64,000 bases of DNA from an uncultured Rhodospirillaceae bacterium (GTDB taxonomy: Bacteria; Pseudomonadota; Alphaproteobacteria; UBA8366), in the NCBI GenBank assembly GCA_913043025.1, contig CAJWLM010000002.1, forward strand, positions 22,777 to 86,776. The letters run 5' to 3'. Both the position numbers and the translations under genes were made by a program. Of this stretch, positions 7,469-34,397 are shown piece after piece (position 1 is the first letter of the stretch; each line of letters opens with the position of its first letter). The notes under the pieces were generated by a model. It did no database searches and had not been told where the DNA came from. It was given only the letters and a program-made list of their open reading frames with translations.

Positions 7469-7503
7469 TTTTTTGAAATACCTACAGAGAGAGGAAAAAT
7501 AAT

Positions 7504-8709: not shown

Positions 8710-8753
8710 TAAATTTTGCAGGTCGTCTTTAACAAGCCGATTTTAAAGTCAAT

Positions 8754-8796: not shown

Positions 8797-8816
8797 GGTT
8801 GAGGAATTAAGGTAAT

Positions 8817-15500: not shown

Positions 15501-15765
15501 GATCCCATCAGCCTATACCAATTGGTATGTTTGTAATGCCTGGAAGTCCAAATATATACTGGATACAGAAAGAATTATAACCTTTTAAAACAATTTATTT
15601 CGAAGCGAAATATGCAAGGTGGAAGCGAATGCGCGTTATCATGAATTTACGAGGGATGCTATACTGTCTGCGATGTAGTTGAGCTCTCCTTTAAAGAAGC
15701 AAAGAGACATAACATTTCAGACTGAGAATACGGTATTGCAGCATAGAGTGATGTAACGGGATTTT

Positions 15766-17754
15766 TTGGCCTTAAAGCCACTGGGGTTACGCAAAATTTT
15801 GACGAAGAAAAAATTCACCCAAAGCGATTATTTAGAGTCTGCAAGGAACGCCTTCAGGCAGAATGAACTGGGGCGGGCTGAGGATCTCATAAAGGCTTCT
15901 ATCGAAGCAAACTCGGGCAACCCGATAGCGCATGCCTATTATGGGGAAATTCTCCTAGCCCTTGGTCGTCCGAAGGAGGCAGGAGATTCCTATCAAACAG
16001 CTACCGATATTTGCCCAGAAGAGGGTACATTTTGGCATGGATTGGGGTTAGCTAAATTTAGGGCGGGTTCCCTAGGCGCTGGGATAAATGCTTTGAGCTG
16101 TGCAATAGAGTTAATGCCCGACAATCCAGAAGCACATAATAATCTTGGTAATTTACAAAAAGAAGCAGGTAACCTCAGGGATGCGGTTTTTAGTTATACA
16201 AGGGCTTTAGAGTTGAAACCGGACTTTGGTGAGGCGTTTGGAAACTTAGGAGTCGTATTTTTAGGTCTTGGAGAGTTGCTCGATGCAGAAAAAGCTTTAT
16301 CTGCAGCAGCACAAATAAGGCCAATGGATCCAGTTATTCTGACCAATCTCGGGTGTGCTTTTGCGGCCTTGGGCCGTATGACTGAAGCCACGCAATGGCA
16401 TAGGAAGGCACTTAAGTTAGATGCCAGAAATACTGCAGCTTTAAATAATCTAGCAGTCTCTTTAAAAGATCAGGGACAAATCAATGATGCCCTCAAGGTG
16501 TATGATAGGCTTATAGAGTTGGCTCCCGAGGACTACTCTGCCAGATCAAACCAATTAATGTGTTTGAACTATAGGGAGGCATGCGATGGCGTTACAATAT
16601 TTCGGAGTCACCGAGAATGGGAAAAAAATCTTAAAAAACCGATTGAGTCATTTACGCCCGTAAATAAAACCTCTCGACGCCCCTTAAAAGTCGGAATCGT
16701 CTCGCCGGATCTGTGGACACATTCCGTTGCTAATTTTTTAATTCCCCTTTTACAGCACTACGACAGGGAGGAATTTCACATTACATGTTACAGCGATACT
16801 CAGGTGCCGGACGAGACAACTGAAATGCTGAAGAGATTCAGTAACTCCTGGCGTGAAATAAGAAATTTGAGCGATGAATCTGTCTCAAAGAGAATCAGAT
16901 CGGATAACATAAACATTCTTATCGACCTGGCAGGCCATACTGGAAACAACCGATTGACGGTATTTGCGCAGCGGGTTGCGCCTATACAGATAACCTGGCT
17001 TGGTTATCCAACGACAACCGGACTAAGCCAGATGGATTTTCGCTTGACTGATGTTGTTGCAGATCCCCCTAGCTCGACAGAAGTATTTCATAGTGAAGTA
17101 TTAGTTCATCTTCAGCCTTGTTTTTTATGTTATTCCCCACCGAAAAAAATACCTTTATTAAAAGTCAAACATAGACCCGTCACTTTTGGATCGTTTAACA
17201 ATTTCGCTAAGTTGACCGAGAAATCTGTTCACTTGTGGGCTCAATTGATGAACAAGGTTCCCGCATCGCGGTTGGTGCTTAAGTCGCGGCAATTCGCTGA
17301 TCCTGTGATAGCAAAGATGATTTCCGATTTGTTTGAGGGAAGGGGTGTTGAGCAAACAAGAGTTGAATTGGTGGGTAGGGTTCGAAGCCGACAAGCACAC
17401 CTGGAATATTATAATGAGATTGATATTGCGTTGGATACTTTTCCATATAACGGCACTACCACAACGTGCGAGGCCCTTCTTATGGGAGTGCCAGTGGTTA
17501 GCAGGGCCGGGGGCCTGCACGCGGGGCGAGTTGGCGCAAGCTTGCTTTCCGCTATGGGGTGCATGCACTGGGTTGCTTCTCATGAAAATGAGTTCTTAGA
17601 TATTGCTGTCAGCTTGGTAAATGATCGTCCGTCTAAAGATGCTTTACGTGCCGATTTTCTCGGATCAAAACTATGTGATGGCCAGGGTTTTGCACACTCT
17701 TTTCAGGCGACTTTGCAAAAATTATGGCATCAGCGCCATATTTCAAAAGCTTAG
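15766..17754 (+). CDS. TPR-containing GT41 (OGT/SPINDLY-like) protein glycosyltransferase
   Basis: Multiple TPRs (AHNNLGN, AFGNLG, ALNNLA), SPDLWTHSV, DLAGHT, WLGYPTTTG, FGSFNNFAK, DTFPYNGTTTTCEAL. Confidence 0.9.
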   Translation: MALKPLGLRKILTKKKFTQSDYLESARNAFRQNELGRAEDLIKASIEANSGNPIAHAYYGEILLALGRPKEAGDSYQTATDICPEEGTFWHGLGLAKFRAGSLGAGINALSCAIELMPDNPEAHNNLGNLQKEAGNLRDAVFSYTRALELKPDFGEAFGNLGVVFLGLGELLDAEKALSAAAQIRPMDPVILTNLGCAFAALGRMTEATQWHRKALKLDARNTAALNNLAVSLKDQGQINDALKVYDRLIELAPEDYSARSNQLMCLNYREACDGVTIFRSHREWEKNLKKPIESFTPVNKTSRRPLKVGIVSPDLWTHSVANFLIPLLQHYDREEFHITCYSDTQVPDETTEMLKRFSNSWREIRNLSDESVSKRIRSDNINILIDLAGHTGNNRLTVFAQRVAPIQITWLGYPTTTGLSQMDFRLTDVVADPPSSTEVFHSEVLVHLQPCFLCYSPPKKIPLLKVKHRPVTFGSFNNFAKLTEKSVHLWAQLMNKVPASRLVLKSRQFADPVIAKMISDLFEGRGVEQTRVELVGRVRSRQAHLEYYNEIDIALDTFPYNGTTTTCEALLMGVPVVSRAGGLHAGRVGASLLSAMGCMHWVASHENEFLDIAVSLVNDRPSKDALRADFLGSKLCDGQGFAHSFQATLQKLWHQRHISKA

Positions 17755-17805
17755 TTAGAGGCAAAACTAGCGGTTGCTAGCAGAATTATTATATTCATGT
17801 GAGGC

Positions 17806-19143
17806 ATGAATTTTAATCAGCTTGTTGTGAAAGAAAATGTAACTGTGGTAGATCGTTCACAAAAGTTTCAATCAGATGCCGATATTAAATTTTTTCTTAA
17901 CGAATTATTTAATACGGCAATAGAAGCTGTAGATCCGGTGCTATACCTGCCGGATCATCTTCCGAGAGCACCTACGGGCCGCACCATTGTTGTCGGTGCG
18001 GGTAAGGCGGCCTCCAAAATGCTTGCTTGCATTGAGGGCCGATGGCAGGGAGCATTGGAAGGTCTCGTTATTGTTCCATATGGATACGGGCAAAAATGCG
18101 ACGGTGTGAGGATAATAGAAGCTGGGCATCCAATCCCTGACTTAGCGGGAAATATTGCATCTCAACAGATTCTTGAGTTAGTTACCGGCGCCGGTAGGCA
18201 CGACCTCGTTATCTTTTTGATATCAGGTGGCACCTCGTCTTTATTGAGTCTGCCGTTGCCGGGTTTGACTGCGGATGACAAGGCTCAAATACATAATAAA
18301 CTTTTGAAGTGTGGTGCCGACATCGCCGAAATCAATTGTGTGCGTAAGCATTTATCTGCTGTGAAAGGCGGAAGGCTTGCAATGGCGGCGGCACCCGCTC
18401 GTGTTGTTACATTTTTGATTTCCGACGTGCCAGGTGATGACCCTTCTATCATAGGCTCAGGTCCTACTATTGCAAATAACTCAAGTTGCCATGATGCTGC
18501 AGAAATTTTGGCAAAATATAATATAAATGAACCAGAGGTTGCGATTAAATTGCTCAAGGAGGGTAAAAATCTAGAGCCCAGCCCCACGTCGTCCGTCTTT
18601 ACTGATCAGTCATATCAGGTGATAGCGTCGCCTCAGCTTGCTCTAGAGGCGGCAGCTAATTTAGCGAAAAGACGAGGAATTGAGCCTATAATCCTTGGAG
18701 ATTCGATCGAGGGAGAAGCAAAAGAAGTTGCAAAAGCAATGGCGGGAATCGCTCAACAAGTCAGGAACTATGGCCAGCCGCATTCTCCTCCGGCAGTGTT
18801 GTTATCTGGAGGAGAAACAACTGTTACCGTCAATGGTAAAGGTGTGGGTGGTCGAAACAGTGAATTCCAATTAGCGCTTGCACTTAAGCTTGGTGGTGCC
18901 AGGGGTATTTTTTCTCTTGCTGCAGATACTGATGGTATTGATGGCAATGGAGAGAATGCAGGCGCATTTATAACACCTGATACTCTTAAAAATGCGGCGT
19001 TAAATTCAATCGATGCTTTACATTACTTGAGGCACAACAATTCGGCAGCATTTTTTAAAAAACTTAATGACCTGTTTATAACTGGCCCAACCCACACCAA
19101 TGTGAATGATTTTCGCGCTATTCTAATTCTCCCTCAAACATAG
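17806..19143 (+). CDS. Glycerate kinase type 2 (MOFRL / TtuD family)
   Basis: GAGKAAS, AGHPIPD, LISGGTSSL, RKHLSAVKGGRL, SDVPGDD, SGGETTV, GGRN, DTDGIDG, TGPTHTNVND. Confidence 0.92.
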   Translation: MNFNQLVVKENVTVVDRSQKFQSDADIKFFLNELFNTAIEAVDPVLYLPDHLPRAPTGRTIVVGAGKAASKMLACIEGRWQGALEGLVIVPYGYGQKCDGVRIIEAGHPIPDLAGNIASQQILELVTGAGRHDLVIFLISGGTSSLLSLPLPGLTADDKAQIHNKLLKCGADIAEINCVRKHLSAVKGGRLAMAAAPARVVTFLISDVPGDDPSIIGSGPTIANNSSCHDAAEILAKYNINEPEVAIKLLKEGKNLEPSPTSSVFTDQSYQVIASPQLALEAAANLAKRRGIEPIILGDSIEGEAKEVAKAMAGIAQQVRNYGQPHSPPAVLLSGGETTVTVNGKGVGGRNSEFQLALALKLGGARGIFSLAADTDGIDGNGENAGAFITPDTLKNAALNSIDALHYLRHNNSAAFFKKLNDLFITGPTHTNVNDFRAILILPQT

Positions 19144-19275
19144 CTGTAATTAAGTCCATAAGCAAAATCCCATAAAAAATTTGATAAAATATTTCTCTAG
19201 TTGGGTGCTTATAATTTTTTTAATTAGACAGCCTGGTTGTTTGATCTCAACCATGAAAACTTTGTTTATTTGCTT

Positions 19276-19533
19276 TTACGTTCCTGTGTCTGAAACCAAA
19301 CTATTGCCCACTTTTAATTCATAAATAAACTGGTTGTCCTCCTCTGTTACATTCAAGAGTTTATGCCCACTGGTCTCGCAATAATGACGAACATCCAAAT
19401 AGCTCATGGGATCTGTCGCTACCAGCGTTATCCGGGTTCCAGGGACAAGACCGCGTAGTGATTTTTGAAGTTTCAACACAGGCATGGGGCATAGCAAGCC
19501 TGTTGCATCAATATTTATAGAATCGGAGGTCAA
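19276..19533 (-). CDS. TusA/SirA-family sulfur carrier protein
   Basis: IDATGLLCPMPVLK (CPxP motif), VATDPMS; start overlaps the upstream stop. Confidence 0.88.
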   Translation of the reverse strand: MTSDSINIDATGLLCPMPVLKLQKSLRGLVPGTRITLVATDPMSYLDVRHYCETSGHKLLNVTEEDNQFIYELKVGNSLVSDTGT

Positions 19534-20528
19534 TTTACTTTCAACATAATTTTGCCGAGGTGAGTTGCGCTTTCCATAAGTGAATGAGCTTCAGCGGCTT
19601 TTTCTAGGGGCAAAATTTGCCTCACCATTGGTTTGATTGAGCCATCATTAATTTTTGGCCAAACTTTTTTGAGAAGCTGTTTGGCAATCTCCGCTTTGAA
19701 TGCTTCGGGCCTACTTCTCAGTGTAGAGCCCGTATATATTAGTCGCTTTAACATTATTGGCATGAGGTTAATTTCTATCTTTGAGCCAAGATTAAATGCC
19801 AATTGGACAATCGCCCCCTCATGTTTTGAAGCTTTAATATTTCGTTCAATATAGGGTCCACCGACGGTATCAAGGATTACATCTGCCCCGCCAGCTTCGC
19901 GAACTATCTCAACAAAATCTTGGTTCTTGTAGTCAATGACTTTGTCGGCCCCAAATTCCGCAGCAAAGGAACACCGGTCATCTGGGCTATCAGTCGTGTA
20001 TACTGTCGCGCCAAATGCTTTTCCAAGTTGGACTGCCGTGGCGCCAATTCCGCCCGATCCACCATGCACTAGGAATAGATCATTTGGTTTGAGGTCAACA
20101 AAGCCCATGAAAATATTGCTCCACACTGTGAAGAAGGTTTCAGGCAAGCTGGCAGCTTCAACAAGGTCTAATTGTTGTGGGACGGGTAAGAAGTGTGTTG
20201 CGTCAGCCGCTACGTATTGAGCATAACCACCACCATTTGTAAGGCCACATACTTGGTCGCCGATGACCCATTCCGTGACATTTTCTCCAGCGGCCACAAC
20301 TTCCCCGGCAACCTCTAGACCAAGTAAGTCGGTTGCACCTTTTGGTGGAGGGTAGTGGCCTCGGCGTTGAACAAGGTCAGGTCCGTTTACGCCTGCGGCT
20401 GCAACTTTAATCAGAATTTCATGTTTTTTGGGTTCCGGCACTTTGCGAGTGGAAGGCTTTAATACGTCGGGTTTCCCTGGTTCAGAAATTTCAATGGCAG
20501 TCATTGATGAAGGAATATCAGCAGTCAT
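19530..20528 (-). CDS. NAD(P)H-quinone oxidoreductase, PIG3 / zeta-crystallin family
   Basis: AAGVNGPD, YPPPKGA, GLEVAG, LPETFFTVW, VHGGSGGIG, GSTLRSR. Confidence 0.9.
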   Translation of the reverse strand: MTADIPSSMTAIEISEPGKPDVLKPSTRKVPEPKKHEILIKVAAAGVNGPDLVQRRGHYPPPKGATDLLGLEVAGEVVAAGENVTEWVIGDQVCGLTNGGGYAQYVAADATHFLPVPQQLDLVEAASLPETFFTVWSNIFMGFVDLKPNDLFLVHGGSGGIGATAVQLGKAFGATVYTTDSPDDRCSFAAEFGADKVIDYKNQDFVEIVREAGGADVILDTVGGPYIERNIKASKHEGAIVQLAFNLGSKIEINLMPIMLKRLIYTGSTLRSRPEAFKAEIAKQLLKKVWPKINDGSIKPMVRQILPLEKAAEAHSLMESATHLGKIMLKVN

Positions 20529-20619
20529 GGATTATACCTTTTAATTTATCTGTAATTGAATTTAGTTAAAGTTCGGTTGCAGCAGGCTTAACCAATTCTT
20601 CTCGTGAAAACTTGTCACT

Positions 20620-20946
20620 TCAATCATGCATTACCGGATTTCCGGATGCATACCAATCTTCTATGCCACCCTGAAGGCGGTAAATCGTACCGGAATATCC
20701 TGATTGTATTATTTTTTCGGCTGCTAAGCCGCATCGGATCCCGCTTGCGCAATGGAGAATAATTTTTTTTCCGTCATGATTTGGCAAAGCATCAGGAACG
20801 AAACATGAAAGAGGTAAAGCGTGCGATCTATCAATTCGTGCAATGGCACGTTCCTCCGGTTCTCGCACATCGACTAGTATTGCTTCGTCATCATCTAACC
20901 ATTGAAGGACAGTCTCTGAAGTAATAAATTGTTGCTGCATGTTCAA
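20620..20946 (-). CDS. Single-domain rhodanese-like sulfurtransferase
   Basis: LVDVREPEE, active-site loop HCASGIR, LQGGIEDW. Confidence 0.88.
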   Translation of the reverse strand: MNMQQQFITSETVLQWLDDDEAILVDVREPEERAIARIDRSHALPLSCFVPDALPNHDGKKIILHCASGIRCGLAAEKIIQSGYSGTIYRLQGGIEDWYASGNPVMHD

Positions 20947-21049
20947 TTCAACCCGTTTTTGGCATTTAATAGCACAAAGGCTTGGCTCGAGGACCGCTAA
21001 TGTGCTTACCTACGATCTATAACTCTTAGCACATTTGGGAGAGGCATAA

Positions 21050-21823
21050 ATGGGGGAATATTCTACTGTCGCACGTGAAGGTCATATTTTAACTGTCACA
21101 GTTAATCGTCCGGAACGTATGAACGCACTGCATTCCATGGCACATTTTGAAATGGCTGAGATATTTGATGAATTCGAAGCGGATGATGATCTTTGGATTG
21201 CCATCCTAACGGGTGCCGGAGAACGTGCATTTAGCGCGGGTAACGATTTAAAATTCCAAGCTGAAGGCGGCAGACGCGACAAACCCGATAGTGGATTCGG
21301 CGGTATGGTAAAGCGTTTCAATCGTAACAAGCCAATTATTGCGGCAGTAAATGGAGTTGCGATGGGTGGTGGCTTTGAGCTTGCACTCGCTTGCGACATA
21401 ATAATTGCCGCAGAAAACGCAAAATTTGCTCTTCCAGAACCGCGAGTTGGCTTGGCTGCGATGTCAGGCGGGCTACATCGTTTACCTCGTGCTATACCGA
21501 GGCACCAAGCTTTGGGAATGATTCTAACGGGTCGCCATGTGTCCGCCGATGAAGGATATCGTTTGGGTTTTGTAACTGAGGTAGTGGCAGTGGGTGAGGC
21601 GCTTAAATCGGCTGAGGCATGGGCGGCAGAAATTTTAAAATGTTCTCCAGTATCGATCAGAACATCGATGGAAGTTATGCGCCTAGGTTTAGAAAAAGCG
21701 TCTATTGCGGAAGCCCTTTCTATTGAGTACCAAGCTGAGGAGGTTCTGCGGAATAGTGAAGATTATATTGAAGGCCCTAAGGCATTTTCGGAAAAGCGCG
21801 CTCCCGATTGGAAAGGGCGGTAA
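21050..21823 (+). CDS. Enoyl-CoA hydratase/isomerase (crotonase), CaiD-like
   Basis: NRPERMNAL, AFSAGNDLK, AVNGVAMGGGFELALACD, LPEPRVGL, EGPKAFSEKR. Confidence 0.92.
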   Translation: MGEYSTVAREGHILTVTVNRPERMNALHSMAHFEMAEIFDEFEADDDLWIAILTGAGERAFSAGNDLKFQAEGGRRDKPDSGFGGMVKRFNRNKPIIAAVNGVAMGGGFELALACDIIIAAENAKFALPEPRVGLAAMSGGLHRLPRAIPRHQALGMILTGRHVSADEGYRLGFVTEVVAVGEALKSAEAWAAEILKCSPVSIRTSMEVMRLGLEKASIAEALSIEYQAEEVLRNSEDYIEGPKAFSEKRAPDWKGR

Positions 21824-21830
21824 AACGACT

Positions 21831-23000
21831 TTAAAAAAGCCCCATGCCCGCAACACCGGTTTCTAAATCCATTCTTTCTACAAGTTCCCGGCCAACGAAA
21901 TTGCGTAGCGTTTCAGTAGTTCCCCCACCAAGGGTTCCGTAACGTACTCCTCGATAATTGCGTGAAACGGCAAAGTCATCAAGAAAACCGTAACCGCCAT
22001 GCAATTGAACACCCTCACTGCAAACCCTTATCGACATTTCGTTTACATAGATTTTGGCCATTGCAGCTAGCGTTGGATTGGGGAAAGGCTCAGCGGTTGC
22101 TGCAGCTCTATACAAAATAGACCTGCCAGCCTCAATTTCAGTGAGCATGCTTGCTACCTTCCAGCGCATACCTTGAAAGTCACCAATTGAATTACCGAAG
22201 GCTTTTCGATCCCTCATGAAGCGAATGGATTCCTCAAGAGAGGCTTCCGCCATGCCCAAACAAATTGCCGGATTGAGGCACCTTTGGGTATTAAATGCTC
22301 CGAGTAACTTCCTTAACGATCCCTCACCTAAGCCTAAATTTTCTATGGGCACCTCTACATTTTCAAATCTTACGTCGGCCAAATTTTCGCCACCCATGGT
22401 ATGATAACAGGCATCAGCAGTCAGTCCTTTAGTGCCTTTTTCTACAAAAACACAACCGATTCCTTTCGTTCCGGGCGCGTTGTTGACCCGAGTAAAAATT
22501 ACAAAAAGGTCGGCTTCTTCTGCCCGACTGATCATAGTTTTTGCGCCATTTAAAACCACTCGATCATTCATTACAGATGCATTGGTTTTCATGCTACCTA
22601 GGTCTGTGCCACAATCAGGTTCTGTCATACAGATAGCTAGGATACATTTTCCTTTGAGCAACTTGGGCAAGTACTTTTCTCGAAGTTCGTCGGAACCATA
22701 ATGAGAAAGAATCCTGCATTGAGTGCCAACCTCTCCCAAGACAGCCATTGCAGTGACATAACAGCCTTTAGCAATTTCCTCGAGTACCAGCACTGTGTCG
22801 AGGACACTGGCTCCGATGCCGCCATATTCCTCCGGTACGGCCATGCCAAGGATCCCAATCTCTGCTAAAGCATCCATATTTTCATATGGGAATTCTCCAT
22901 CGAGCCACCTTTTAGCGTTGGGTTCGATTACATTTTTACGAACTCGCTTTACTGTGTCCAACATCATCCGTTGGTCTTCGGTAAGTTCAAATTGCAACAT
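21831..23000 (-). CDS. Acyl-CoA dehydrogenase-fold protein lacking the canonical catalytic Glu (desulfinase-like)
   Basis: ACAD motifs PEEYGG, AICMTEP, NGAKTMIS, HGGYG; FNTQR and TLGGGT at the two usual Glu positions. Confidence 0.8.
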   Translation of the reverse strand: MLQFELTEDQRMMLDTVKRVRKNVIEPNAKRWLDGEFPYENMDALAEIGILGMAVPEEYGGIGASVLDTVLVLEEIAKGCYVTAMAVLGEVGTQCRILSHYGSDELREKYLPKLLKGKCILAICMTEPDCGTDLGSMKTNASVMNDRVVLNGAKTMISRAEEADLFVIFTRVNNAPGTKGIGCVFVEKGTKGLTADACYHTMGGENLADVRFENVEVPIENLGLGEGSLRKLLGAFNTQRCLNPAICLGMAEASLEESIRFMRDRKAFGNSIGDFQGMRWKVASMLTEIEAGRSILYRAAATAEPFPNPTLAAMAKIYVNEMSIRVCSEGVQLHGGYGFLDDFAVSRNYRGVRYGTLGGGTTETLRNFVGRELVERMDLETGVAGMGLF

Positions 23001-23061
23001 GGTAAGCTCCCTGGAAAATAAGAGAATAATCTAATTAACTAAGCTTTTATCGGATTTTTTT

Positions 23062-24363
23062 TCATAGGCTACAAGTTCTGAATCCAGCCAGCACATCGCG
23101 CCGTTCTGGCGTATAAAAATTTCGGTAACGAGCTGTGATCATTCGACTGCGAGTGGCCCAAGCACCACCACGCAGTACTTTTGTCTCGTAAAATACTGGT
23201 TGGGAGTAGTCTTTGTAGGCATCTGGTGAGAAGCCATCGAAGGGTGTAAAAGTACTTGCGGTCCACTCCCAAACATTTCCTATCATTTGACGGCACCCAA
23301 ATGCGCTGTCGCTTTTTGGCAGCGCGCCGACGTCTATCGGGCTCAGAGCGTAGCCATCAAGATTAGCTAGGCTTGCATCGCACGGAGCATCTCCCCAGGG
23401 AAATTTTCGTTTTGATTTAGTAAGCACGTTACCATCTGGGCTGACCTCGCCAAGCGCAGCAGCTTCCCACTCTGCTTCTGAAGGTAAGCGACGTTTAGCC
23501 CACAAGCAATATGCATTCGCCTCATACCAGTTGACATGGATGATGGGCTGGTTCAGGTGTAGGTCTTTAATCGTGTCAAAGTGACGTACAATCCAGTCGC
23601 CTTCGCCGGAACGTTGCCAATAAATGGGACACTCTGCTTTCTCAGTTTGGCGCCAATTCCAACCTTCATTACTCCAAAATTCACGTGTAAGATATCCTCC
23701 ATCAATAACAAATTCCCTGTAATCTCTGTTTGTTACCGGTGTCTTGCATATGTTAAATGGCTCCAAAAGAACGGGATGCGCCCATTTTTCATTATCAAAA
23801 ACGAACCGTTCATTTTTTGTTGCGCCTAATTCGAAATATCCCCCTGGCACCAAACTATCACTGGGAACCATGTCGGCATTTAAAAATGCTTTTGATTTAC
23901 TAAAAATAGGCTTGGGGTATGCAAGATTTTGGCGGCTGTAGGTATAAGCTTCGGTGTGCATATCTTCGTGGAACGTAGCAAACTGATAAATATAGCTGTC
24001 AATTTCACTAGCGGTACCATGTCCCAAACGAGAAAGGCACCGGTCGAGAATACATTCTATGTACTCCATGATCTTATTCATCGGCAGAAGTGGCAAATCC
24101 CACCTTACTTCGTGAGGAATTTCAATTGAATCATAGATATTGTCAAATTCTGCGTTGTATGGGGTGTAACCGTAAAGGTCGCGAAGAATAAATTTTTCAT
24201 AAAACCAAGCCACGTGCCCGATTTCCCAACGAAGTGGATTAACAGTCCGAAGTTTAGGCCCCATAAGTTGACTTGCGTCCAAACCCGATATTAATTCGGT
24301 GGATCGCTTGTGAGCATCTTGAATGATAGTAGAGAGAAAAGAAACGGGAACTGGTTGTGTCAT
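23062..24363 (-). CDS. senA: Selenoneine synthase SenA (EgtB-like: DinB_2 + iron-binding + FGE-sulfatase domains)
   Basis: VNPLRWEIGHVAWF, HEDMHTEA, FDNEKWAH, RRLPSEAEWE, GNVWEW, YRNFY, GFRTC; adjacent to a SenB glycosyltransferase and selD. Confidence 0.85.
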   Translation of the reverse strand: MTQPVPVSFLSTIIQDAHKRSTELISGLDASQLMGPKLRTVNPLRWEIGHVAWFYEKFILRDLYGYTPYNAEFDNIYDSIEIPHEVRWDLPLLPMNKIMEYIECILDRCLSRLGHGTASEIDSYIYQFATFHEDMHTEAYTYSRQNLAYPKPIFSKSKAFLNADMVPSDSLVPGGYFELGATKNERFVFDNEKWAHPVLLEPFNICKTPVTNRDYREFVIDGGYLTREFWSNEGWNWRQTEKAECPIYWQRSGEGDWIVRHFDTIKDLHLNQPIIHVNWYEANAYCLWAKRRLPSEAEWEAAALGEVSPDGNVLTKSKRKFPWGDAPCDASLANLDGYALSPIDVGALPKSDSAFGCRQMIGNVWEWTASTFTPFDGFSPDAYKDYSQPVFYETKVLRGGAWATRSRMITARYRNFYTPERRDVLAGFRTCSL

Positions 24364-24390
24364 ACTGCAGGCTCTTATTAATATAAGTAT
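24364..24390. promoter_or_regulatory. Candidate bidirectional promoter between senA and senB
   Basis: 27-bp spacer with CTTAT-N4-ATAAG inverted repeat; overlapping TANNNT hexamers TAATAT (+, 24379-24384) and TATATT (-, 24385-24380). Confidence 0.4.
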
Positions 24391-25359
24391 ATGAATATTA
24401 CTCTTATCACACCGGCTGGTCATCTTGCCAAAAATGGTAATCGAACCACAGCGTTACGTTGGGCAAAAATATTAACTATGCTCGGCCACAAAGTACAAGT
24501 TAACACGTCATGGGATAGAAGACCCGCTGATTTGATGGTTGCAATCCATGCTTGGCGTAGTGCTAAGTCGGCTAGGTTGTTTCGGAAAGAGTTTCCTGAA
24601 AGCCCCCTGATCATTCTATTATCAGGCACCGACATTTACAAATTCCAATATACCCACCCAAAGGTAACTCTGTATTCAATGAAAATCGCTAATGCTTTAG
24701 CTTGTTTGCATGATGAGGTGTGTCATTCTATACCTTCTCAGTACCGGCATAAATTACATACTATCCACCAGTCAGCATTACCATTAGCCAAAGCCCGCCG
24801 GCCATCTAAGCGAAATTTTGACATTTGTGTTGTGGGAAATCTTCGTGAAGAGAAAGACCCACTCCGTGCTGCATATGCGGTGCGTAACCTGAACAACACT
24901 TCTCGTCTCCGGGTAATTCATCTTGGTAAAGCACACACGCCCGATTGGGCTACGAAAGCTAGGACTGAGATGGCGCGAAACAATCGCTACCGATGGCGTG
25001 GAGAGGTAAAGGCTTGGGAGGTCCGGCGCGAATTTGCAAAGACACGGTTAATGGTTTTAAGCTCAATAATGGAAGGAGGTGCAAATGTTATCTCCGAAGC
25101 AATTGCGGCGGGGGTGCCTGTAATAGCATCAAAAATTGAAGGATCGGTTGGGCTTCTCGGGTCAGATTATGCTGGCTATTATGAGGCTGGAAGTACTGAA
25201 GATTTGCGCCGCGCACTATTGCGCGTTGAAAATGAGCCAAAATTTCTTGCCCATTTGTCATACCAGTGTGAAGCTAGAAGGTATCTTTTCACCATTGAAA
25301 GGGAGAAAGAGGAATGGTCCTCCCTTTTGAGTGCTATAAGTCTAAAAAATAAATCTTGA
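24391..25359 (+). CDS. senB: Selenosugar synthase SenB (GT-B glycosyltransferase)
   Basis: NGNRTTALRW, HAWRS, LSGTDIY, NLREEKDP, SSIMEGGANV; located between senA and selD. Confidence 0.88.
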   Translation: MNITLITPAGHLAKNGNRTTALRWAKILTMLGHKVQVNTSWDRRPADLMVAIHAWRSAKSARLFRKEFPESPLIILLSGTDIYKFQYTHPKVTLYSMKIANALACLHDEVCHSIPSQYRHKLHTIHQSALPLAKARRPSKRNFDICVVGNLREEKDPLRAAYAVRNLNNTSRLRVIHLGKAHTPDWATKARTEMARNNRYRWRGEVKAWEVRREFAKTRLMVLSSIMEGGANVISEAIAAGVPVIASKIEGSVGLLGSDYAGYYEAGSTEDLRRALLRVENEPKFLAHLSYQCEARRYLFTIEREKEEWSSLLSAISLKNKS

Positions 25360-25375
25360 TGAGCTTCCACAACGG

Positions 25376-27640
25376 TTATGCTGTTAATGTGATGGGTTCC
25401 AAAGTCCCCGTATTCTCGGTCACTGTTCCAATCACTGATGTCTCACGATAACCGGCTATTTTTAACTCGTCGACACAGGCGCCAGCATTCTCTGCTGGCA
25501 AACTCGCTAATAGGCCTCCCGAAGTTTGAGGGTCGAAGATAATTGGATAAAGGGGTTCCTGAGCGGCCCTGTCCACATTCCTTATAGCGCGTCGGAGACG
25601 CACATTCTGAGGTTGAAGAGAGCTAAAGATTCCATCTTTGATTAAATCAATGGCTCCGTCCAATACGGGAATCTTACCTAACTCAAGAGTTACGTCTACC
25701 TGTGAGGGCTTTGCCATTTCGACTAAATGCCCCAGAAGGCCAAACCCAGTCACATCAGTGCAAGCATTTGTTTTATGCTTGAATAAAATATCAGCGCCTG
25801 CCTTGTTAGACTGAAGCATTGATGACAGAGCAGCATGCACCCAGTTACCGCGAGCTTTGTGTCGCATATCAGCAGCAAAAAGAGTTCCAGTCCCGACCGG
25901 CTTGGTAAGCACTATTTTGTCGCCAACTTTCATGCCGGCCTTTCGCAGAATGCGATCCTTGTCGATTAGCCCGTTAATAGCAAAGCCAAGCGACATTTCT
26001 GCGCCCTCGCTAGTGTGTCCACCAACTAGCGCGGTGCCGGTTTCCTGCAAAACCTTCATGGCTCCAGCCATCAGCTGTTTTAAATCATCTTCAACCTTAT
26101 CCTCAAGTCCAAAGGGCAGAGTGACTATCGAAAGTGCAGTCTGCGGTTCTCCACCCATAGCGAAAATATCTCCCATTGAGTGATTGGCAGCAATCTGGCC
26201 AAAGACATAAGGATCATCTATGAATGCACGGAACGCATCTACTGTATGTACCATTACTTTATTTCTCGGCACCTCTACCACGGCGGCATCATCTGGCTCG
26301 TGAAGGCCAACTAATACATCAGAGCGTTCCACGGGGTTTAGTTGTTGAAGTGCTCGTTCTAAAACCGTAGCTCCAACCTTGGCACCGCAGCCACCGCAGC
26401 GCATAGCTATAGCCGAAATTTCTTTTATTACATTTTGATCAGCTAATCCCTTTGACACATTTGGAGATTTTTCTTCGTCCATATCACGAAGTTCATTAAA
26501 CTTTTTTACAAACCGTCGATCAATCCAATTTTTCCAATGCCAAATTAACTTGCCTTCGGCAGCCCAATTTGATCGTGAGGCAACCGCATATTTATCTCCG
26601 GTGGTAATGAGGCTTAGAAATTGATGCTGAGGGTTATAAGGTTTTAGAGGTTTTCCGAGAAGTGCGCGCTTGAGATTTCTAGTAAGTGGGGGTCCTTGTC
26701 TTACTGCAAATACGCCTGATTTAGGACGAGGGTGATTTACCACATCGGCAATATCCCCAACTGCGAATATGCCGGGATGAGAAATTGACTCCAGTGTGTC
26801 ATGGACTTTTACAAAGCCTTTAGGAGAAACCGCTAAGCCACTCTCTTTCAACCAATTTTGGGCGCTCGCCATAGTGACCCAAAGAATCTCTTCCAGCTCA
26901 TGAGTAGTGCCGTTACTGCATGTGATGATATTCGGCTCGACTTCTACTATTTTATGATCTGCATGAAGGATGATCCCACGCTCGGTTAAAATACGTCGGT
27001 ATTTTTCTCTGACTTTACTATTATGAGTGGGCAAAATATCATTTGCAGTAAACAAGTGAAATTCTACATCGTGCATCTGGTCTTTCTGTGCACGCAGAAG
27101 CTGTTTCAATCGGAATTGAATTGCCAGTGCGATTTCTACACCTCCGGCGCCACCCCCGACTATGCCTACTCTGGTTTTGCTGCATGCTGCTAACACACGT
27201 TCGCGAATCTGATTCCAATGGTCAACAAACCCGTTGATTGGTTTGACTGGCATGACATTATTTTCAGCTCCCAAAACGGACGTAGTGTTGGGAGCTGAGC
27301 CGATATTGATTGAAAGAAGGTCGTACTTTACAGGCGGGCGGTCTTTACAAAAAATTTGGTTTGATTTGGGATCAACCATCGTTACTTCGTTGCAGAAGAA
27401 TCTCGCTTTTGCAAAGCGTGCTAAGGGAGCTAGGTCTATGTGAGACTCATCAAATGAGTAATGCCCCGCTATAAAGCCCGGGAGCATACTTGAGTATGGC
27501 GCCTGCAAGTCACGGCAAATCAAAGTTAGGCGAACGCCCGGAATGGGCTTCATCCCAAATTTTTTAAGGACCGTGATGTGACTGTGACCGCCACCAATTA
27601 GGACAAGATCTTTGAGTATTGGGGTTTCAGCACTTTCCAT
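25376..27640 (-). CDS. selD: Selenide, water dikinase SelD (SenC) fused to an N-terminal pyridine nucleotide-disulfide oxidoreductase domain
   Basis: N-terminal LVLIGGGHSH, IVGGGAGGVE, KSGVFAVRQG; C-terminal RCGGCGAK (Cys, not Sec), DDAAV, GGHT, TKPVGTG, TDVTGFGLLGHL, DPQTSGGLL. Confidence 0.93.
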   Translation of the reverse strand: MESAETPILKDLVLIGGGHSHITVLKKFGMKPIPGVRLTLICRDLQAPYSSMLPGFIAGHYSFDESHIDLAPLARFAKARFFCNEVTMVDPKSNQIFCKDRPPVKYDLLSINIGSAPNTTSVLGAENNVMPVKPINGFVDHWNQIRERVLAACSKTRVGIVGGGAGGVEIALAIQFRLKQLLRAQKDQMHDVEFHLFTANDILPTHNSKVREKYRRILTERGIILHADHKIVEVEPNIITCSNGTTHELEEILWVTMASAQNWLKESGLAVSPKGFVKVHDTLESISHPGIFAVGDIADVVNHPRPKSGVFAVRQGPPLTRNLKRALLGKPLKPYNPQHQFLSLITTGDKYAVASRSNWAAEGKLIWHWKNWIDRRFVKKFNELRDMDEEKSPNVSKGLADQNVIKEISAIAMRCGGCGAKVGATVLERALQQLNPVERSDVLVGLHEPDDAAVVEVPRNKVMVHTVDAFRAFIDDPYVFGQIAANHSMGDIFAMGGEPQTALSIVTLPFGLEDKVEDDLKQLMAGAMKVLQETGTALVGGHTSEGAEMSLGFAINGLIDKDRILRKAGMKVGDKIVLTKPVGTGTLFAADMRHKARGNWVHAALSSMLQSNKAGADILFKHKTNACTDVTGFGLLGHLVEMAKPSQVDVTLELGKIPVLDGAIDLIKDGIFSSLQPQNVRLRRAIRNVDRAAQEPLYPIIFDPQTSGGLLASLPAENAGACVDELKIAGYRETSVIGTVTENTGTLEPITLTA

Positions 27641-27642
27641 GA

Positions 27643-29142
27643 TTAATGAGTATCCAATGAGGTTTGTAAACGTAATCTACTGCGGATCGACCGCGACAGA
27701 ATATCAATAAATATATTTAATAGGGCAGTTATAATAATTAACACGATAGCACGGTCGAAGCGAATGTCTGCAAAGGCGGAGTCAACGAAAAACCCAAGTG
27801 TTTTCACTCCCAGTATTCCAAGGATTGCTGTTTCACGAAAAATGACTTCCCAGCGGTAAAATAAAAAAGCTAAAAACTGCGGGTAAATTCGAGGAAGTGT
27901 TTCATACGAATAGAGATTTATGCCTTTGGAGCGGTCGGGCCGCAGCCGAAGGTGATTGCTAAAGTTACCGATGAGATGCCCAATTATCGCAGCATTGTGG
28001 AAAGAGAGGGCTACGACGGCAGGGAACATAGACGGTCCTAATAACTGTAACAAGACGAATGCGATTACATATTCTGGTGTCGAACGGATAACGACTAAAA
28101 TAGTGTGTCCCGCTAGCCGACTTTTTGGGCCAAAAAAGAGTGATGAAATGAGCGGGAAGAACAGTAATGATAAGATCCCTGTTGCCGCCAAAGCTATCAT
28201 CGTCAGCACAATTGTGTTGAGTATCCCAGGCAATGCTTCATTAAGAATAAGAGTCTGAAACCAAAACCAAGTTTCAAGCATAATCGGTATTGTTATGGTT
28301 TCTACATTCCGAATAGGAGTTGGCATGATGTCATGTGCAAAAAAACGCCAAGCGTTTGACCATGTCATCGCGCCGCTCTCTGGTAATACAACGCACGCCG
28401 CTATTAAAAGCACTGGAATTGTTTCTCGCCTCATCCACTTCCGCACTGTCGAAATTAGAACATAAAAAACGATCAGGAGTGCTGATAGGTCAGAATAGAG
28501 ACCTTCTTTGTAGGCAGTTTCTAAATAAAACCCCAGCGTAGGAAGGCCAACAAACCCTAGCACAGCACTCGAACGAAGGCCGCACTCTAGTCGATAGAAA
28601 GAATATGTTTTCACGTTTGACCAGACACCTGGTAATTTAGCATAAAAAAACAATGAGACAATTGATGTGCCATTGGGAATAGCTTGCATAGGGGCTGGGT
28701 CAGCCTCTTCTAAAAGCTCAGCGTAAACCTTCGCACATATACCGCTGTAAGGGATTGCAATAGCAAGTACACCCGTCAATGCAGTAAGCCCGAAAATTTG
28801 CAGGAAGATTAATGCCCAGAATAATTCGTGCACAGCACGAACAAAGGCACAAGCGACCCGCACTGCACGGTAATGAAAAATGACCGCAAGCAAAAAACCT
28901 GTAAAATTTGCTAGCGCTACACCTAGAATGGCAAATGCTAACGTCATCATTAAGGCCTCAAATATTTGCTTCCATTTGGCGAAGTTTGGTTGGATCAAAC
29001 CCATGCCCAGTCTTTTCATTTCTGGCCATGGATCTTGAGTGGTTATCTCGATATCGGCAACGAGAAGGCAGCCAAACGCCACCAAAAGAAACCAAAGGCT
29101 GGTTCGCACTAGCGGAGATTTTGGAATTAGGGGTGTTGACAC
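27643..29142 (-). CDS. ABC transporter permease, PhnE/PtxC-like, two fused TM domains
   Basis: Two repeats with EAA-like loops: YRLECGLRSSAVLGFVG and YRWEVIFRETAILGILG; very hydrophobic; GTG at 29142 follows the ATPase stop. Confidence 0.85.
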   Translation of the reverse strand: MSTPLIPKSPLVRTSLWFLLVAFGCLLVADIEITTQDPWPEMKRLGMGLIQPNFAKWKQIFEALMMTLAFAILGVALANFTGFLLAVIFHYRAVRVACAFVRAVHELFWALIFLQIFGLTALTGVLAIAIPYSGICAKVYAELLEEADPAPMQAIPNGTSIVSLFFYAKLPGVWSNVKTYSFYRLECGLRSSAVLGFVGLPTLGFYLETAYKEGLYSDLSALLIVFYVLISTVRKWMRRETIPVLLIAACVVLPESGAMTWSNAWRFFAHDIMPTPIRNVETITIPIMLETWFWFQTLILNEALPGILNTIVLTMIALAATGILSLLFFPLISSLFFGPKSRLAGHTILVVIRSTPEYVIAFVLLQLLGPSMFPAVVALSFHNAAIIGHLIGNFSNHLRLRPDRSKGINLYSYETLPRIYPQFLAFLFYRWEVIFRETAILGILGVKTLGFFVDSAFADIRFDRAIVLIIITALLNIFIDILSRSIRSRLRLQTSLDTH

Positions 29143-29143
29143 A

Positions 29144-29800
29144 TCAATTGCCGTAAAGTTCAGCAAGGTCTGAGGAACTCATACCGTCTGATTGGCGATC
29201 TAGGATGATTTTACCGGACGAGAGCCCAATGATCCTGCTGCAGAAACTTAATGCAAGCTGCACGTCGTGCATAGCTAGCACAACTGTTTCATGATTAGTG
29301 GTAATAGTTTCCATCACGTTTCGTGCCTGGTGTTCATCGACTGCAGAAACTGGTTCATCTCCAAGAAATATATTACAACCCTGATACAATGCTCTGGCTA
29401 TACCCGCACGTTGCTGTTGACCTCCTGACAATTCTCCGACGGGAGAATTAATTTTGTCAGTAAGCTCCAGTTGTTTGAGGACTTTGAGCACAGCATTTCG
29501 TTCATTAGACAAAGGGCGTATAAGGTTAGTCAGATTGTAAAGAGTTGAGTTCTGATGGAGTCTTCCGATGAATGTGTTATGGAAAACAGAGAGATTAGGT
29601 ACTAATCCGAGGTTCTGGGGTAAAAACGCACATTCCTCAACCTGAGTATCATAAAGTAAGCGAAGCAGTGTCGATTTTCCGGCACCGCTTCGACCTACCA
29701 ATGCAATTTTCTCGCCTTGTTCGACTTCCAGCGAGACTTTATCGAGAACTCGCTTACCCTTATATGAGGCACAAGCCTTATTAAGTTTGAACAACACCAC
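29144..29800 (-). CDS. ABC transporter ATP-binding protein, PhnC-like
   Basis: Walker A GRSGAGKS, signature LSGGQQQR, Walker B FLGDEP, H-loop AMHD. Confidence 0.9.
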   Translation of the reverse strand: MVLFKLNKACASYKGKRVLDKVSLEVEQGEKIALVGRSGAGKSTLLRLLYDTQVEECAFLPQNLGLVPNLSVFHNTFIGRLHQNSTLYNLTNLIRPLSNERNAVLKVLKQLELTDKINSPVGELSGGQQQRAGIARALYQGCNIFLGDEPVSAVDEHQARNVMETITTNHETVVLAMHDVQLALSFCSRIIGLSSGKIILDRQSDGMSSSDLAELYGN

Positions 29801-29807
29801 AGTTGCA

Positions 29808-30662
29808 TCAATCGATCAGACCAATTTCTCTCGCCGTGTCTAAGATTGGTTTAAAATCTTTATTAACAGCTTTGATGAAACTTTTTCGGGGAAATGAACG
29901 AAGAAGAACAGGGTCTTTCATGCCGATTAATGCCTTCTGAACTCTATTGGTGAATCCTTTACCAAATTTTTTGTCAGTATCCCCACGGATGGACCAATTA
30001 TAGTCTGGATATCCAGGCGTTTTCCAAATGATAGATACCTTCTTTTGATCGATCTTACCCGCATTAAGCTCTTTTTTGTAAACCTTAAAATTAACAGCAC
30101 CTACTTCGTAGGCGCCGCTATTCACCAGTGCAACCGTGCGCGAGTGACTGCCACTGAAGCCTACTCTTTTAAATACTTTATCAGGAGTTTTGCCAAATGC
30201 TTTTCTGATGTGGAACTCTGGCATCAATCGGCCTGAAGTGGACCCCTTGGAACCAAAAGTAAACGTCTTTCCAGCCATCCCCTTCGGAAAACTTAAACTT
30301 GGTTTAAGGCCACTTGATTTGTGTGCGATGAAATAAGTTTCGAAGAACGGGTCCTCAAATCCCTGAGCAATTGCTTTTGATCCCTTTACAAGCTGTCTGG
30401 CCCTGACTCCAGAAAGGCCTCCGAACCAAGCAAGTTGTACTTGGTTATTCCGAAAGGCGGTAACCGCTGCAGCATATGATTTAACAGGTATATATTTCGT
30501 TTTAACAGAAAGCTCTTTCTCTAGGTAAACAGCAATTTTATTAAAACGTTTTTTCAGCGCGCTTTCGTCTTGGTCTGGTATGGCTGTAAAGACAAATTCT
30601 GTAGCTTGTATCTGGCTCGTGAATCCAAGTATTAAGGCCGCTAACATTATAAATTTTTTCAT
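29808..30662 (-). CDS. Periplasmic substrate-binding protein, PhnD-like; putative selenate ABC transporter family
   Basis: Signal peptide; FTAIPDQD, AWFGGLSGVRAR, FTFGSKGSTSGRLMP, GFSGSH, TPGYPDYNW match the selD-associated PhnD-like family as recalled. Confidence 0.8.
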   Translation of the reverse strand: MKKFIMLAALILGFTSQIQATEFVFTAIPDQDESALKKRFNKIAVYLEKELSVKTKYIPVKSYAAAVTAFRNNQVQLAWFGGLSGVRARQLVKGSKAIAQGFEDPFFETYFIAHKSSGLKPSLSFPKGMAGKTFTFGSKGSTSGRLMPEFHIRKAFGKTPDKVFKRVGFSGSHSRTVALVNSGAYEVGAVNFKVYKKELNAGKIDQKKVSIIWKTPGYPDYNWSIRGDTDKKFGKGFTNRVQKALIGMKDPVLLRSFPRKSFIKAVNKDFKPILDTAREIGLID

Positions 30663-30706
30663 GGTTCTATCTCTTTGGTGTAAAAAAAATTACAGCTTTT
30701 ATATTG

Positions 30707-30732
30707 CCGGTTCATATAACCGGTTCATATAA
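30707..30732. repeat. Perfect 13-bp tandem direct repeat (CCGGTTCATATAA x2)
   Basis: Read directly at 30707-30719 and 30720-30732, about 45 bp upstream of the ABC operon start. Confidence 0.85.
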
Positions 30733-30942
30733 AACGTAGGCAGGTTTTTCAAGTGTTCATGCCAAAAAATGCGATCATGAAAGATATGTTTGAACAAGAT
30801 AGTCAAAACTCCAAGATGATCAGGTGCAAAAATTTTATTGCGGCACCTTTCTTTTTAATAAGCAATTTTGCATTAGTCCTAACGGTTACGATTTCCAAAA
30901 TTTTTATAAAAAGTGCAAATAATTTGAAGAGTAAATTGTCAA

Positions 30943-31143
30943 ATGTCAGCTGAAACGACACTGAATATAACCTGCCACTTTTGTTTCAACCAGATCGATG
31001 TGGACCTTGAAATAGATCAGTCCTTCGAAGGTTCTGATATGGAAATTTATGATTGTAATATTTGTTGCAACCCGAATAAGCTGAAGTACACTGTTACTCA
31101 TGGATCCATAATTAATGTCCATGTCAGTGACGGCAATGAGTAA
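30943..31143 (+). CDS. Small CPXCG-like cysteine-rich (zinc-ribbon) protein
   Basis: CHFC...DCNICCNP pattern, 66 aa, acidic. Confidence 0.7.
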   Translation: MSAETTLNITCHFCFNQIDVDLEIDQSFEGSDMEIYDCNICCNPNKLKYTVTHGSIINVHVSDGNE

Positions 31144-31286
31144 ATGTAAAGGCTTACGCTCCATTATTCATTGAGGGTCGACAGAGCCTGAATCGATATT
31201 GATGCACACAACATCGACGGCCTGGATGTAAAATATCTTTTGATTTTAAAGTAGATTTGGTTTGGATTTCTTGATGCGACAGAATT

Positions 31287-32063
31287 ATGAGTAAATTCAA
31301 TACTGTTTGGGTGACTGGAACTCCTCGCACTGGTTCCATGTGGACAACAAACGTTATTAGAGAAATATATTCAACAAAGCAATTTGCTCTACACCCCCAA
31401 GAGCAACTGCAAAACAACAGTGACTGGTTAAACCTGTTTAAGGACTGTGCTATTGCTGACACTGATGCAAATAACAGATATATTTTGAAAATCCATACAC
31501 TGTTAAACCCAAATTTGCCGAAGTCTAGATTTGTTGTTAATACCCGCAATCCATATGACATATGCGCATCATTTTTTGACTTTATGAAGTGTGATTTAGA
31601 TCGTGCCATAGAAGTGGCATTGAACCATCGAGCAGTTATGGAACATTATAAGTCCTTCAAAACAGGATTGCTATTTGTCGTTAAATATGAAGATTTAGAA
31701 TTGGATGCCATTAATTCAATTCTGGCACTGAGCGAATTTGTTGAATGTAAAATTAGCAAAGACACGGCCAGGAAAATTTCTGCTAAATACGATAAAAGAT
31801 CAGTTAAAAAATTGATCGAAAGGACCGAAAGCGAAATTCAACGCAAAATAATCCAAAAAGAACATGTCCATGACAAAATGGTCGTTGAGCGTGCTGACGG
31901 TTCATTTCGTTCTTTTGATTTGGATACTGGTTTTCAATCCGGTCACATTTCGAGAAGAAAGTGCGGTGAGTGGAGAAATACTTTTTCTCAAAAACAAATC
32001 ACTACGGTCATAAATGCGCTAGATGATTTCGCCGCTGGCATGGGATACATGTCAGAGCGGTGA
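31287..32063 (+). CDS. Sulfotransferase-domain protein
   Basis: 5'-PSB-like GTPRTGSMW, KIH, 3'-PB-like RNPYD..AS, VKYEDL, C-terminal GEWRN. Confidence 0.75.
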   Translation: MSKFNTVWVTGTPRTGSMWTTNVIREIYSTKQFALHPQEQLQNNSDWLNLFKDCAIADTDANNRYILKIHTLLNPNLPKSRFVVNTRNPYDICASFFDFMKCDLDRAIEVALNHRAVMEHYKSFKTGLLFVVKYEDLELDAINSILALSEFVECKISKDTARKISAKYDKRSVKKLIERTESEIQRKIIQKEHVHDKMVVERADGSFRSFDLDTGFQSGHISRRKCGEWRNTFSQKQITTVINALDDFAAGMGYMSER

Positions 32064-32090
32064 TGAAACCCAGCAAATAATGGCTTTAAA

Positions 32091-32166
32091 TGGTGCCGCC
32101 GCACGGATTTGAACCGCGGACCTGAGGTTTACAAAACCCCTGCTCTACCAACTGAGCTACGGCGGC
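32091..32166 (-). tRNA. tRNA-Thr(TGT)
   Basis: Cloverleaf GCCGCCG...anticodon arm GGGGT-TTTGTAA-ACCTC...TTCAAAT...encoded CCA. Confidence 0.97.
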
Positions 32167-32301
32167 ACAGGAAAATAAAAATTACCTTTTGGTATGTATG
32201 TATACCTTTTTACATTGGGTTGCGTCACGCGTGAATTATAACTTTAATATGTTTAATTGAATCAAGCTAAAATCGTCATCCTTGTTGCTATCATGAAATT
32301 T

Positions 32302-34395: not shown

Positions 34396-34397
34396 CT

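Follow-up and report, generated by a model that had tools for sequence, protein, structure and literature searches.

A conventional sen locus with a putative selenate-type transporter in an uncultured marine Rhodospirillaceae bacterium, and five flanking genes that very probably lie outside its selenium system

How far does a selenium locus extend beyond the genes that make selenoneine? The question is raised by eleven genes between positions 19276 and 30732 of a stretch of DNA from an uncultured Rhodospirillaceae bacterium. The stretch, hereafter the window, comprises 64,000 nucleotides of contig CAJWLM010000002.1 (assembly GCA_913043025.1, positions 22,777 to 86,776 of the forward strand). 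An earlier note had read all eleven genes as a possible complete selenium module—import, reduction, perselenide relay, selenoneine synthesis, and recycling of organo-Se/S acyl-CoAs. The core of that claim, formed by the transporter and the genes senA, senB, and senC, holds; its extension to an acyl-CoA dehydrogenase-like gene (ACAD), a crotonase, a rhodanese, a quinone oxidoreductase (QOR), and a TusA-type carrier is not supported, with synteny in only 3 of 26 relatives and a TusA that is not of the YedF type. The locus is very probably the known sen locus together with a general selenium supply, and the genes at 19276-23000 appear to be ordinary neighbours outside the selenium system. No larger selenium module is revealed, but one more cluster of the published type with a known transporter and a marine Ndh-SelD fusion.

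Gene calls in the window derive from a listing of open reading frames (ORFs) combined with Pfam and NCBIfam scans, judged against the curated cut-offs; all eleven named genes were located by these means where the earlier note had put them. The selenoneine synthase SenA, an EgtB-like non-haem iron enzyme, is encoded at 23062-24423 on the minus strand. It scores 470 bits with NF041186 (469.6 in the genome search; cut-off 420) and does not reach the EgtB equivalog TIGR03440 (319 vs. 360). SenB, the selenosugar synthase and a GT4-type Se-glycosyltransferase, is encoded at 24391-25359 on the plus strand, adjoins senA as its divergent neighbour, and scores 385 bits with TIGR04348 (cut-off 300). SenC is a fusion of an Ndh-like oxidoreductase with SelD of 754 residues (25376-27640, minus strand). 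Its N-terminal domain matches TIGR03169 with 483.5 bits (cut-off 310) and PF07992 with 81 bits, and its SelD domain matches TIGR00476 with 306 bits (cut-off 125); the model TIGR04369, named oxidoreductase/SelD-related fusion, not SelD, is not reached (500 vs. 700). The SelD active site reads C-G-G-C-G-A-K, i.e., a CxxC motif, and the Cys and Lys of C-G-x-K are present. Upstream of senC lie the genes of an ATP-binding cassette (ABC) transporter, all on the minus strand: a PhnD-like periplasmic binding protein (29808-30662), a PhnC-like ATPase (29144-29800; PF00005, 87 bits), and a PhnE-like double-length permease of 507 residues (27643-29166), which matches TIGR01097 in two stretches.

The transporter genes and senC are packed as tightly as the earlier note had described: 7 nt separate phnD from phnC, phnC and phnE overlap by 23 nt as called, and 2 nt separate phnE from senC. 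The end of the block as first drawn, 30732, lies 70 nt past the called start codon of phnD. The same note had continued this run through senB and senA; both genes are present, but senB is on the plus strand, divergent from senA and convergent with senC. The core is thus not one operon and comprises at least three transcription units. The opposite orientation of senB and senA recurs in 25 of 25 related loci that have senB. As called, the two ORFs share 33 nt where their 5' ends meet (24391-24423), and overlaps of 24-33 nt are also seen in the tblastn matches of the related loci L008, L010, L013, and L025-L028. Residue 21 of SenA is a nearly invariant Met in the alignment, which suggests that translation starts there; such a start would leave a divergent spacer of 27 nt and hence place both promoters inside the coding region of the partner gene.

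The arrangement of the core is conserved among relatives. An order-level sample of 41 genomes, including that of the window, contains SenA over the cut-off in 27, and about 9 kb on each side of the 26 other senA genes were fetched and searched with the window proteins. The gene senB adjoins senA in 25 of these 26 loci, senC occurs in 22 of them, with a contig end accounting for two of the four absences, and an orthologous transporter stands beside the sen genes in 15. In L017 (genome G035), the SenC match covers only half of the fusion. Clusters of senA, senB, and senC are described from Variovorax paradoxus and about 800 other bacteria, with 827 clusters in total, and a gene for a putative selenate transporter and egtD are reported near many of them (10.1101/2022.04.13.486033). 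The genes encoded together with these synthases include, according to Table 1 of PMC13674229 (2026), SenB with 8.1%, SenC with 6.3%, PhnE with 3.1%, and ABC_peri_selen with 3.1%. In ocean metagenomes, Ndh-SelD fusions make up about 40% of the SelD proteins of the Cys type, and the CxxC motif is reported for all of these fusions (PMC2398784). The region 23062-30662 of the window is a conventional sen locus with a frequent accessory transporter, of which each element and each linkage has already been published. The earlier reading of importer, reductase-SelD fusion, SenB, and SenA as a system of selenium uptake, activation, and selenoneine synthesis is borne out by curated cut-offs and conserved synteny.

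The substrate of the transporter is the point at which this reading of the core meets its strongest rival, namely that phosphonate, phosphite, or another oxyanion is imported and that the place beside selD has nothing to do with selenium uptake. All three subunits are homologues of PhnDCE, and the permease comes close to the PhnE equivalog (TIGR01097, 213.5 vs. 216.7). The binding protein, however, scores 362 bits with TIGR04553, putative selenate ABC transporter substrate-binding protein (cut-off 250), and fails the PhnD model TIGR03431 (133 vs. 261); PhnC likewise stays below its equivalog TIGR02315 (165 vs. 266). It has to be kept in mind that TIGR04553 is a hypothetical equivalog named from context, and the literature examined yielded no assay of binding or transport. 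Gene context argues for selenium: the transporter stands beside the sen genes in 15 related loci, and in two loci of a neighbouring family (L024 of G039 and L031 of G031), the other two of the four without senC, it directly follows senB. A wider survey with one genome per species, in which a scan with a SenA alignment gave 80 EgtB/SenA loci from many phyla—48 of them with a SenB-like gene beside the synthase—contains PhnD-like matches in 10 of these 48. The same association is reported by 10.1101/2022.04.13.486033 and by PMC13674229. A non-selenium importer is accordingly improbable, and family name and context together point to a putative importer of a selenium oxyanion. One of the wider loci (L061, 8572-11278, from a metagenome-assembled genome) carries two SenA-like genes in tandem, with 42% and 49% identity to SenA of the window, followed by senB and a PhnDCE-like transporter.

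The genome of the window (G000, 97% complete) shows which other pathways probably draw on the same selenophosphate. No SelD besides the SenC fusion passes the cut-off in this genome, which also encodes SelA (contig 4) and two tRNA 2-selenouridine synthases (selU; contigs 55 and 8). Because a single SelD occurs together with selA and two selU genes, the unit of transporter and senC is most likely the general selenium supply of the cell—for selenocysteine, selenouridine, and selenoneine—rather than a module for selenoneine only. In such marine Alphaproteobacteria, the name SenC should thus be taken to mean the general SelD rather than a paralogue dedicated to one pathway. The methyltransferase EgtD, for the supply of hercynine, is encoded on another contig (G000:C24:4510-5412; TIGR03438, 395 bits vs. 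291). Taken together, the pathway would run as follows: the PhnDCE-like importer, judged by its family name, may take up a selenium oxyanion; the Ndh-like flavoprotein domain on SelD probably helps to deliver reduced selenium, a function not established in the literature examined; the SelD domain with its CxxC motif would make selenophosphate; SenB would make the selenosugar, a step known for its family; and SenA would couple the selenosugar to hercynine from EgtD to give selenoneine, as is known for these families.

Further EgtB/SenA-like genes are found outside the window. A second one in the same genome is cut by a contig end (G000:C55:5125-5838, minus strand; L126, 3167-3886) and lies about 750 nt from the selU gene at C55:3453-4370; for its C-terminal half, SenA gives a slightly better score (257 bits) than EgtB does (226). 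Many relatives have such a second copy, with 346-381 bits and hence under the SenA cut-off. A SenA/EgtB-like match of 381 bits (G009:C13:5453-6715, minus strand) contains one in-frame TGA, which could be a codon for selenocysteine, an error of sequencing, or the mark of a pseudogene.

The five genes on the other side of senA, for which the earlier note had proposed a perselenide relay and the recycling of organo-Se/S acyl-CoAs, are of mixed orientation. The ACAD-fold protein (21831-23000, minus strand) is matched by all three ACAD Pfam domains. It is followed by a protein of the crotonase/enoyl-CoA hydratase family (21050-21823, plus strand; PF00378, 199 bits), which reaches no NCBIfam equivalog cut-off. 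The single-domain rhodanese (20620-20946, minus strand; PF00581, 49 bits) has a Cys loop of the active-site type and likewise reaches no NCBIfam equivalog. The QOR (19530-20528, minus strand) is an NAD(P)H quinone oxidoreductase of the PIG3 family (TIGR02824, 438 bits, cut-off 297); as a candidate for the acrylyl-CoA reductase AcuI it was rejected (NF051456, 39 vs. 440). The TusA-domain protein (19276-19533, minus strand) has 85 residues and scores 69 bits with PF01206 (cut-off 28.6). It carries the CPxP motif named in the earlier note, in the form C-P-M-P, and does not reach the E. coli-type TusA equivalog NF001423 (53 vs. 78). Its assignment to YedF, the selenium-linked family, was tried and rejected: TIGR03527 gives 31 bits against a cut-off of 110, and the protein has a single domain. 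The selenium-linked SirA-like family is YedF, a two-domain protein of SirA-like and DsrE-like parts, and the authors of PMC5322559 state that they were unable to find a SirA-like subfamily of single-domain proteins with a link to selenium.

Among the relatives, the block of ACAD, crotonase, rhodanese, QOR, and TusA adjoins senA in 3 of 26 loci, one from the same genus (G002) and two from its sister genus g4 (G006 and G015). None of the five orthologues occurs within the 9-kb flanks of senA in the other 23. Away from senA, the orthologues are scattered. ACAD orthologues with 69-99% identity are found in 15 of 40 relatives; where they share a contig with senA, the distance is 0.9 Mb (G010) or about 2 Mb (G018 and G021), and in 11 of 12 loci the 9 kb around the ACAD orthologue contain no other gene of the block, the exception being L044 of G003, which belongs to the window's genus. 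Orthologues of the crotonase occur in 25 of the 41 genomes, those with 59-74% identity being located elsewhere in relatives, and those of the rhodanese in 27, also located elsewhere. A QOR orthologue is present in 37 of the 41 genomes and a TusA-like gene in 38, and each of the two is found in 12 of the 14 genomes without SenA over the cut-off. With the TusA of the window as query, one TusA-like candidate was found in the window's genome; the protein is probably a housekeeping sulfur carrier.

The closeness of rhodanese and TusA has a history of its own. The two genes are spaced by 2-7 kb in ten relatives of four genera, and in G018 and G021, where pair and senA share one assembled chromosome, the distance to senA is more than 2 Mb. 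A gene of the TauE/SafE family (sulfite exporter) follows the rhodanese in both annotated loci (L131, G018:C1:2311000-2325000; L132, G031:C242:11000-19000), and the stretch between rhodanese and TusA in G018 also includes an Alph_Pro_TM gene and a molybdopterin oxidoreductase. Of this rhodanese-TauE/SafE-TusA neighbourhood, the rhodanese and TusA remain in the window's genus, with the QOR between them. Since the two genes are also close in relatives, their closeness in the window is an older synteny that is unrelated to the sen genes.

In the wider survey, no such block was seen among the 80 EgtB/SenA loci. Single-query tblastn searches (E <= 1e-3, coverage >= 0.4) gave 0 matches each for TusA and rhodanese, although this search is insensitive for short domains. 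The crotonase was matched in one locus and the QOR in one, both without senB, and the ACAD weakly in four (26-31% identity); SenC was matched as a long fusion in eight loci and as a short SelD type in 13. Pfam models for TusA and rhodanese were also run on five genomes with sen loci from this survey, and coordinates were compared for the two that are single chromosomes (genomes of L054 and L065): no TusA domain was found in either, and the distance from the sen locus to the nearest rhodanese is about 59 kb in one and 146 kb in the other.

The notion that the five flanking genes act jointly with the sen genes in a perselenide relay and in the recycling of organo-Se/S acyl-CoAs can be weighed on this basis. 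It draws on the adjacency of the genes in the window and three close relatives, on an ACAD that is co-oriented with senA and separated from it by no predicted terminator, on the lack of the catalytic Glu in this ACAD, as in the C-S-cleaving desulfinases, and on the CPxP motif of TusA together with the active-site-type Cys of the rhodanese. However, the five genes form no conserved block, and the ACAD orthologues stand alone or with genes similar to sucCD; the only TusA copy found in the genome belongs to a family that almost every genome of the order sample has, whether SenA is present or not. The co-encoded-gene table of PMC13674229 lists none of the five, and its main text mentions none of these families. 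Because the juxtaposition is confined to two sister genera and the orthologues are dispersed elsewhere, the extension is unsupported and an extended module is very unlikely. The lack of synteny in relatives is one half of what the earlier note itself had named as refuting its proposal, the other half being a lack of co-regulation by selenium. The genes at 19276-23000 would instead have been brought beside senA in an ancestor that the two genera share.

Several observations nevertheless weigh against so clean a division of the locus. On the side of the core, the substrate of the transporter and the role of the oxidoreductase domain are taken from names and context. On the side of the flank, the wide tblastn survey could overlook short domains such as those of TusA and rhodanese. 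Genus g2 has different acyl-CoA genes abutting senA, so that a recurrent acyl-CoA neighbourhood is possible: three of its loci (L019, at 4662-9292, L021, and L022) contain ACAD-like matches of 23-31% identity, PimC-like and IpdE2-like, beside a gene for an ADP-forming acyl-CoA ligase of 721 residues that converges on senA, with the stop codons overlapping by 4 nt. With 35-60 ACAD-like candidates per genome, one is estimated to fall within 9 kb of a given gene in about one case in seven. The crotonase orthologues are confined to two families in which SenA is common, which follows phylogeny and is weak evidence. ACAD and SenA also tend to occur together across the 41 genomes (both in 16, including that of the window, SenA only in 12, ACAD only in 1, and neither in 13); this co-occurrence, too, follows phylogeny, and with the genes unlinked in most genomes it is weak evidence. 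Finally, the ACAD gene follows senA co-directionally after 61 nt. Because it is co-oriented and the spacer is AT-rich and free of a hairpin, read-through from senA into ACAD is possible.

A scan of 18800-31400 gave 15 promoter-like and 11 terminator-like sites, below the means of shuffled sequences (22.3 and 12.5), and none of the terminator-like sites lies between senA and ACAD. A shared operator among the intergenic regions was sought and rejected, as only short two-copy matches appeared, mostly in coding regions, and these were judged to be due to chance. The Rfam search of 15000-35000 returned only tRNA and no riboswitch or other regulatory RNA; the tRNA gene (32094-32166, minus strand; RF00005, 70.8 bits) has a threonine synthase gene on one side and, on the other, the hypothetical genes to the right of phnD. 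In marine RNA libraries, four runs belonging to two studies contain 5-13% of the sampled words. Their contigs, 100-320 nt long and of low depth, lie on parts of QOR, ACAD, senA, senB, senC, and phnE, and four records match over 33-41 nt; no listed contig bridges 23000-23062, and such contigs cannot show transcripts and may derive from DNA carry-over.

The junction underlies a second proposal for the flank, which is very unlikely: in genera g1 and g4 only, a relocated ACAD would be transcribed with senA and would have acquired a role linked to selenoneine or its precursors, the other four genes being unrelated. This would fit the spacing of 61-66 nt at which the ACAD follows senA co-directionally in each of the four block-bearing genomes of the two genera, and also the lack, in these genomes, of the SucCD-like partner found in other genera. 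However, the ACAD has its own ribosome-binding site, is 88% identical between the two genera compared with 64-65% for SenA and keeps every motif of its subfamily, with no sign of a new function, and no acyl-CoA step is known for selenoneine chemistry in the available parts of the literature examined.

With the five genes placed outside the selenium system, the ACAD remains of interest as an enzyme. It had been described as Glu-less and desulfinase-like. The first term is accurate: in an alignment with three solved ACADs, Gly359 stands at the Glu of Y-E-G, and Gln239 occupies the alternative position of the catalytic base. The second applies in part, as the active-site signature is common to both groups, but a conserved Arg is absent and the desulfinase model fails. 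As references served three true 3-sulfinopropanoyl-CoA desulfinases, found in 3 of 301 genomes with 609-651 bits against a cut-off of 600; these were aligned with seven members of the family and six distant homologues from other proteobacterial records (62-70% identity). The motifs G-G-G-T, N-x-Q-R, and F-Q-G-x-x-W are common to the subfamily of the window ACAD and the three desulfinases. The window protein has N-T-Q-R, G-G-G in place of Y-E-G, and a Met at the position of an Arg that is present in 3 of 3 desulfinases, whereas each of the 13 distinct subfamily members has Met or Leu there. This Arg is reportedly the sulfinate-binding Arg84 of AcdDPN7 (Schurmann et al. 2015). Membership in the desulfinase family was rejected for the window protein: NF042439 gives 272 bits against 600, identity is 33-34%, and the desulfinase structure PDB 5af7 ranks thirteenth, after ordinary ACADs.

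With over 4,000 protein clusters matching at E <= 1e-100, the subfamily is a large one, and among the 120 listed, those with a name bear generic names only; in a class-level sample of 300 other genomes, with six candidates scored per genome, no orthologue was found at E <= 1e-130. In genera g2, g7, and g16, the ACAD orthologue directly follows SucC-like and SucD-like genes. The co-directional units are annotated by family in L035 (6950-10176) and L033 (8998-12304) and recognized by ORF sizes and order in L039 (8995-12198); co-directional SucD-like-ACAD units, identified by an orthologue of the SucD-like gene, occur in g9 and g10 (G012:C25:122055-124157 and G011:C345:14937-16971). The ligase genes score far under the succinyl-CoA synthetase cut-offs, and the SucCD-like/ACAD units are flanked by unrelated Tad-pilus genes. 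In genus g8, a BCCT transporter takes the place of the SucCD-like genes before ACAD, and no orthologue of the SucD-like gene was found in the genome of the window, in G006, or in G010. Judged by motifs and neighbours, the ACAD is a member of a widespread, uncharacterised, desulfinase-like subfamily that in related genera is usually paired with a SucCD-like CoA ligase. A tentative proposal, with the balance of probability clearly against it, is that the subfamily consists of non-dehydrogenating, lyase-type enzymes acting on the CoA ester of some analogue of succinate; in the window's genus, in which the ACAD has lost the ligase partner, the substrate might even be a Se- or S-bearing acid, for which the position behind senA is the one pointer. 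Irrespective of selenium, enzymological work on the Glu-less subfamily and its SucCD-like partner would be worthwhile.

Several known systems resemble parts of the locus. The 3-sulfinopropionyl-CoA desulfinase (AcdDPN7/AcdA; PDB 5af7/5ahs) has the ACAD fold in common with the window protein and, like it, lacks the catalytic Glu, with G-G-G for Y-E-G, but differs by its Arg, where the window subfamily has Met or Leu, and by a mere 33-34% identity. That the desulfinase and a few other branches have lost the catalytic Glu is on record (PMC9293079, PMC8360864). The pairing of ACAD and SucCD-like genes in related genera recalls the catabolism of 3-sulfinopropionate, in which SucCD activates the substrate in the known desulfinase pathway (PMC6370202). 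YedF (PMC5322559) has a SirA/TusA domain with a CPxP motif like the TusA of the window, which, unlike YedF, consists of this one domain and lacks the DsrE-like domain.

The closest likeness is that of the core. The window holds the same three families over the curated cut-offs as the sen cluster of V. paradoxus (10.1101/2022.04.13.486033), with a putative selenate-type transporter nearby and EgtD in the genome; it differs in that its SenC is a long Ndh-SelD fusion and the only SelD, and in that egtD lies on another contig. In the sen loci of other phyla in the wide sample, senA and senB are co-directional, whereas they are divergent in the window. The marine Ndh-SelD fusions (PMC2398784) feature the same architecture of an N-terminal FAD/NAD(P)H oxidoreductase and a SelD with CxxC, and no difference from SenC of the window was found. 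They also have the marine origin in common with the window, near-identical fragments of which occur in marine RNA libraries.

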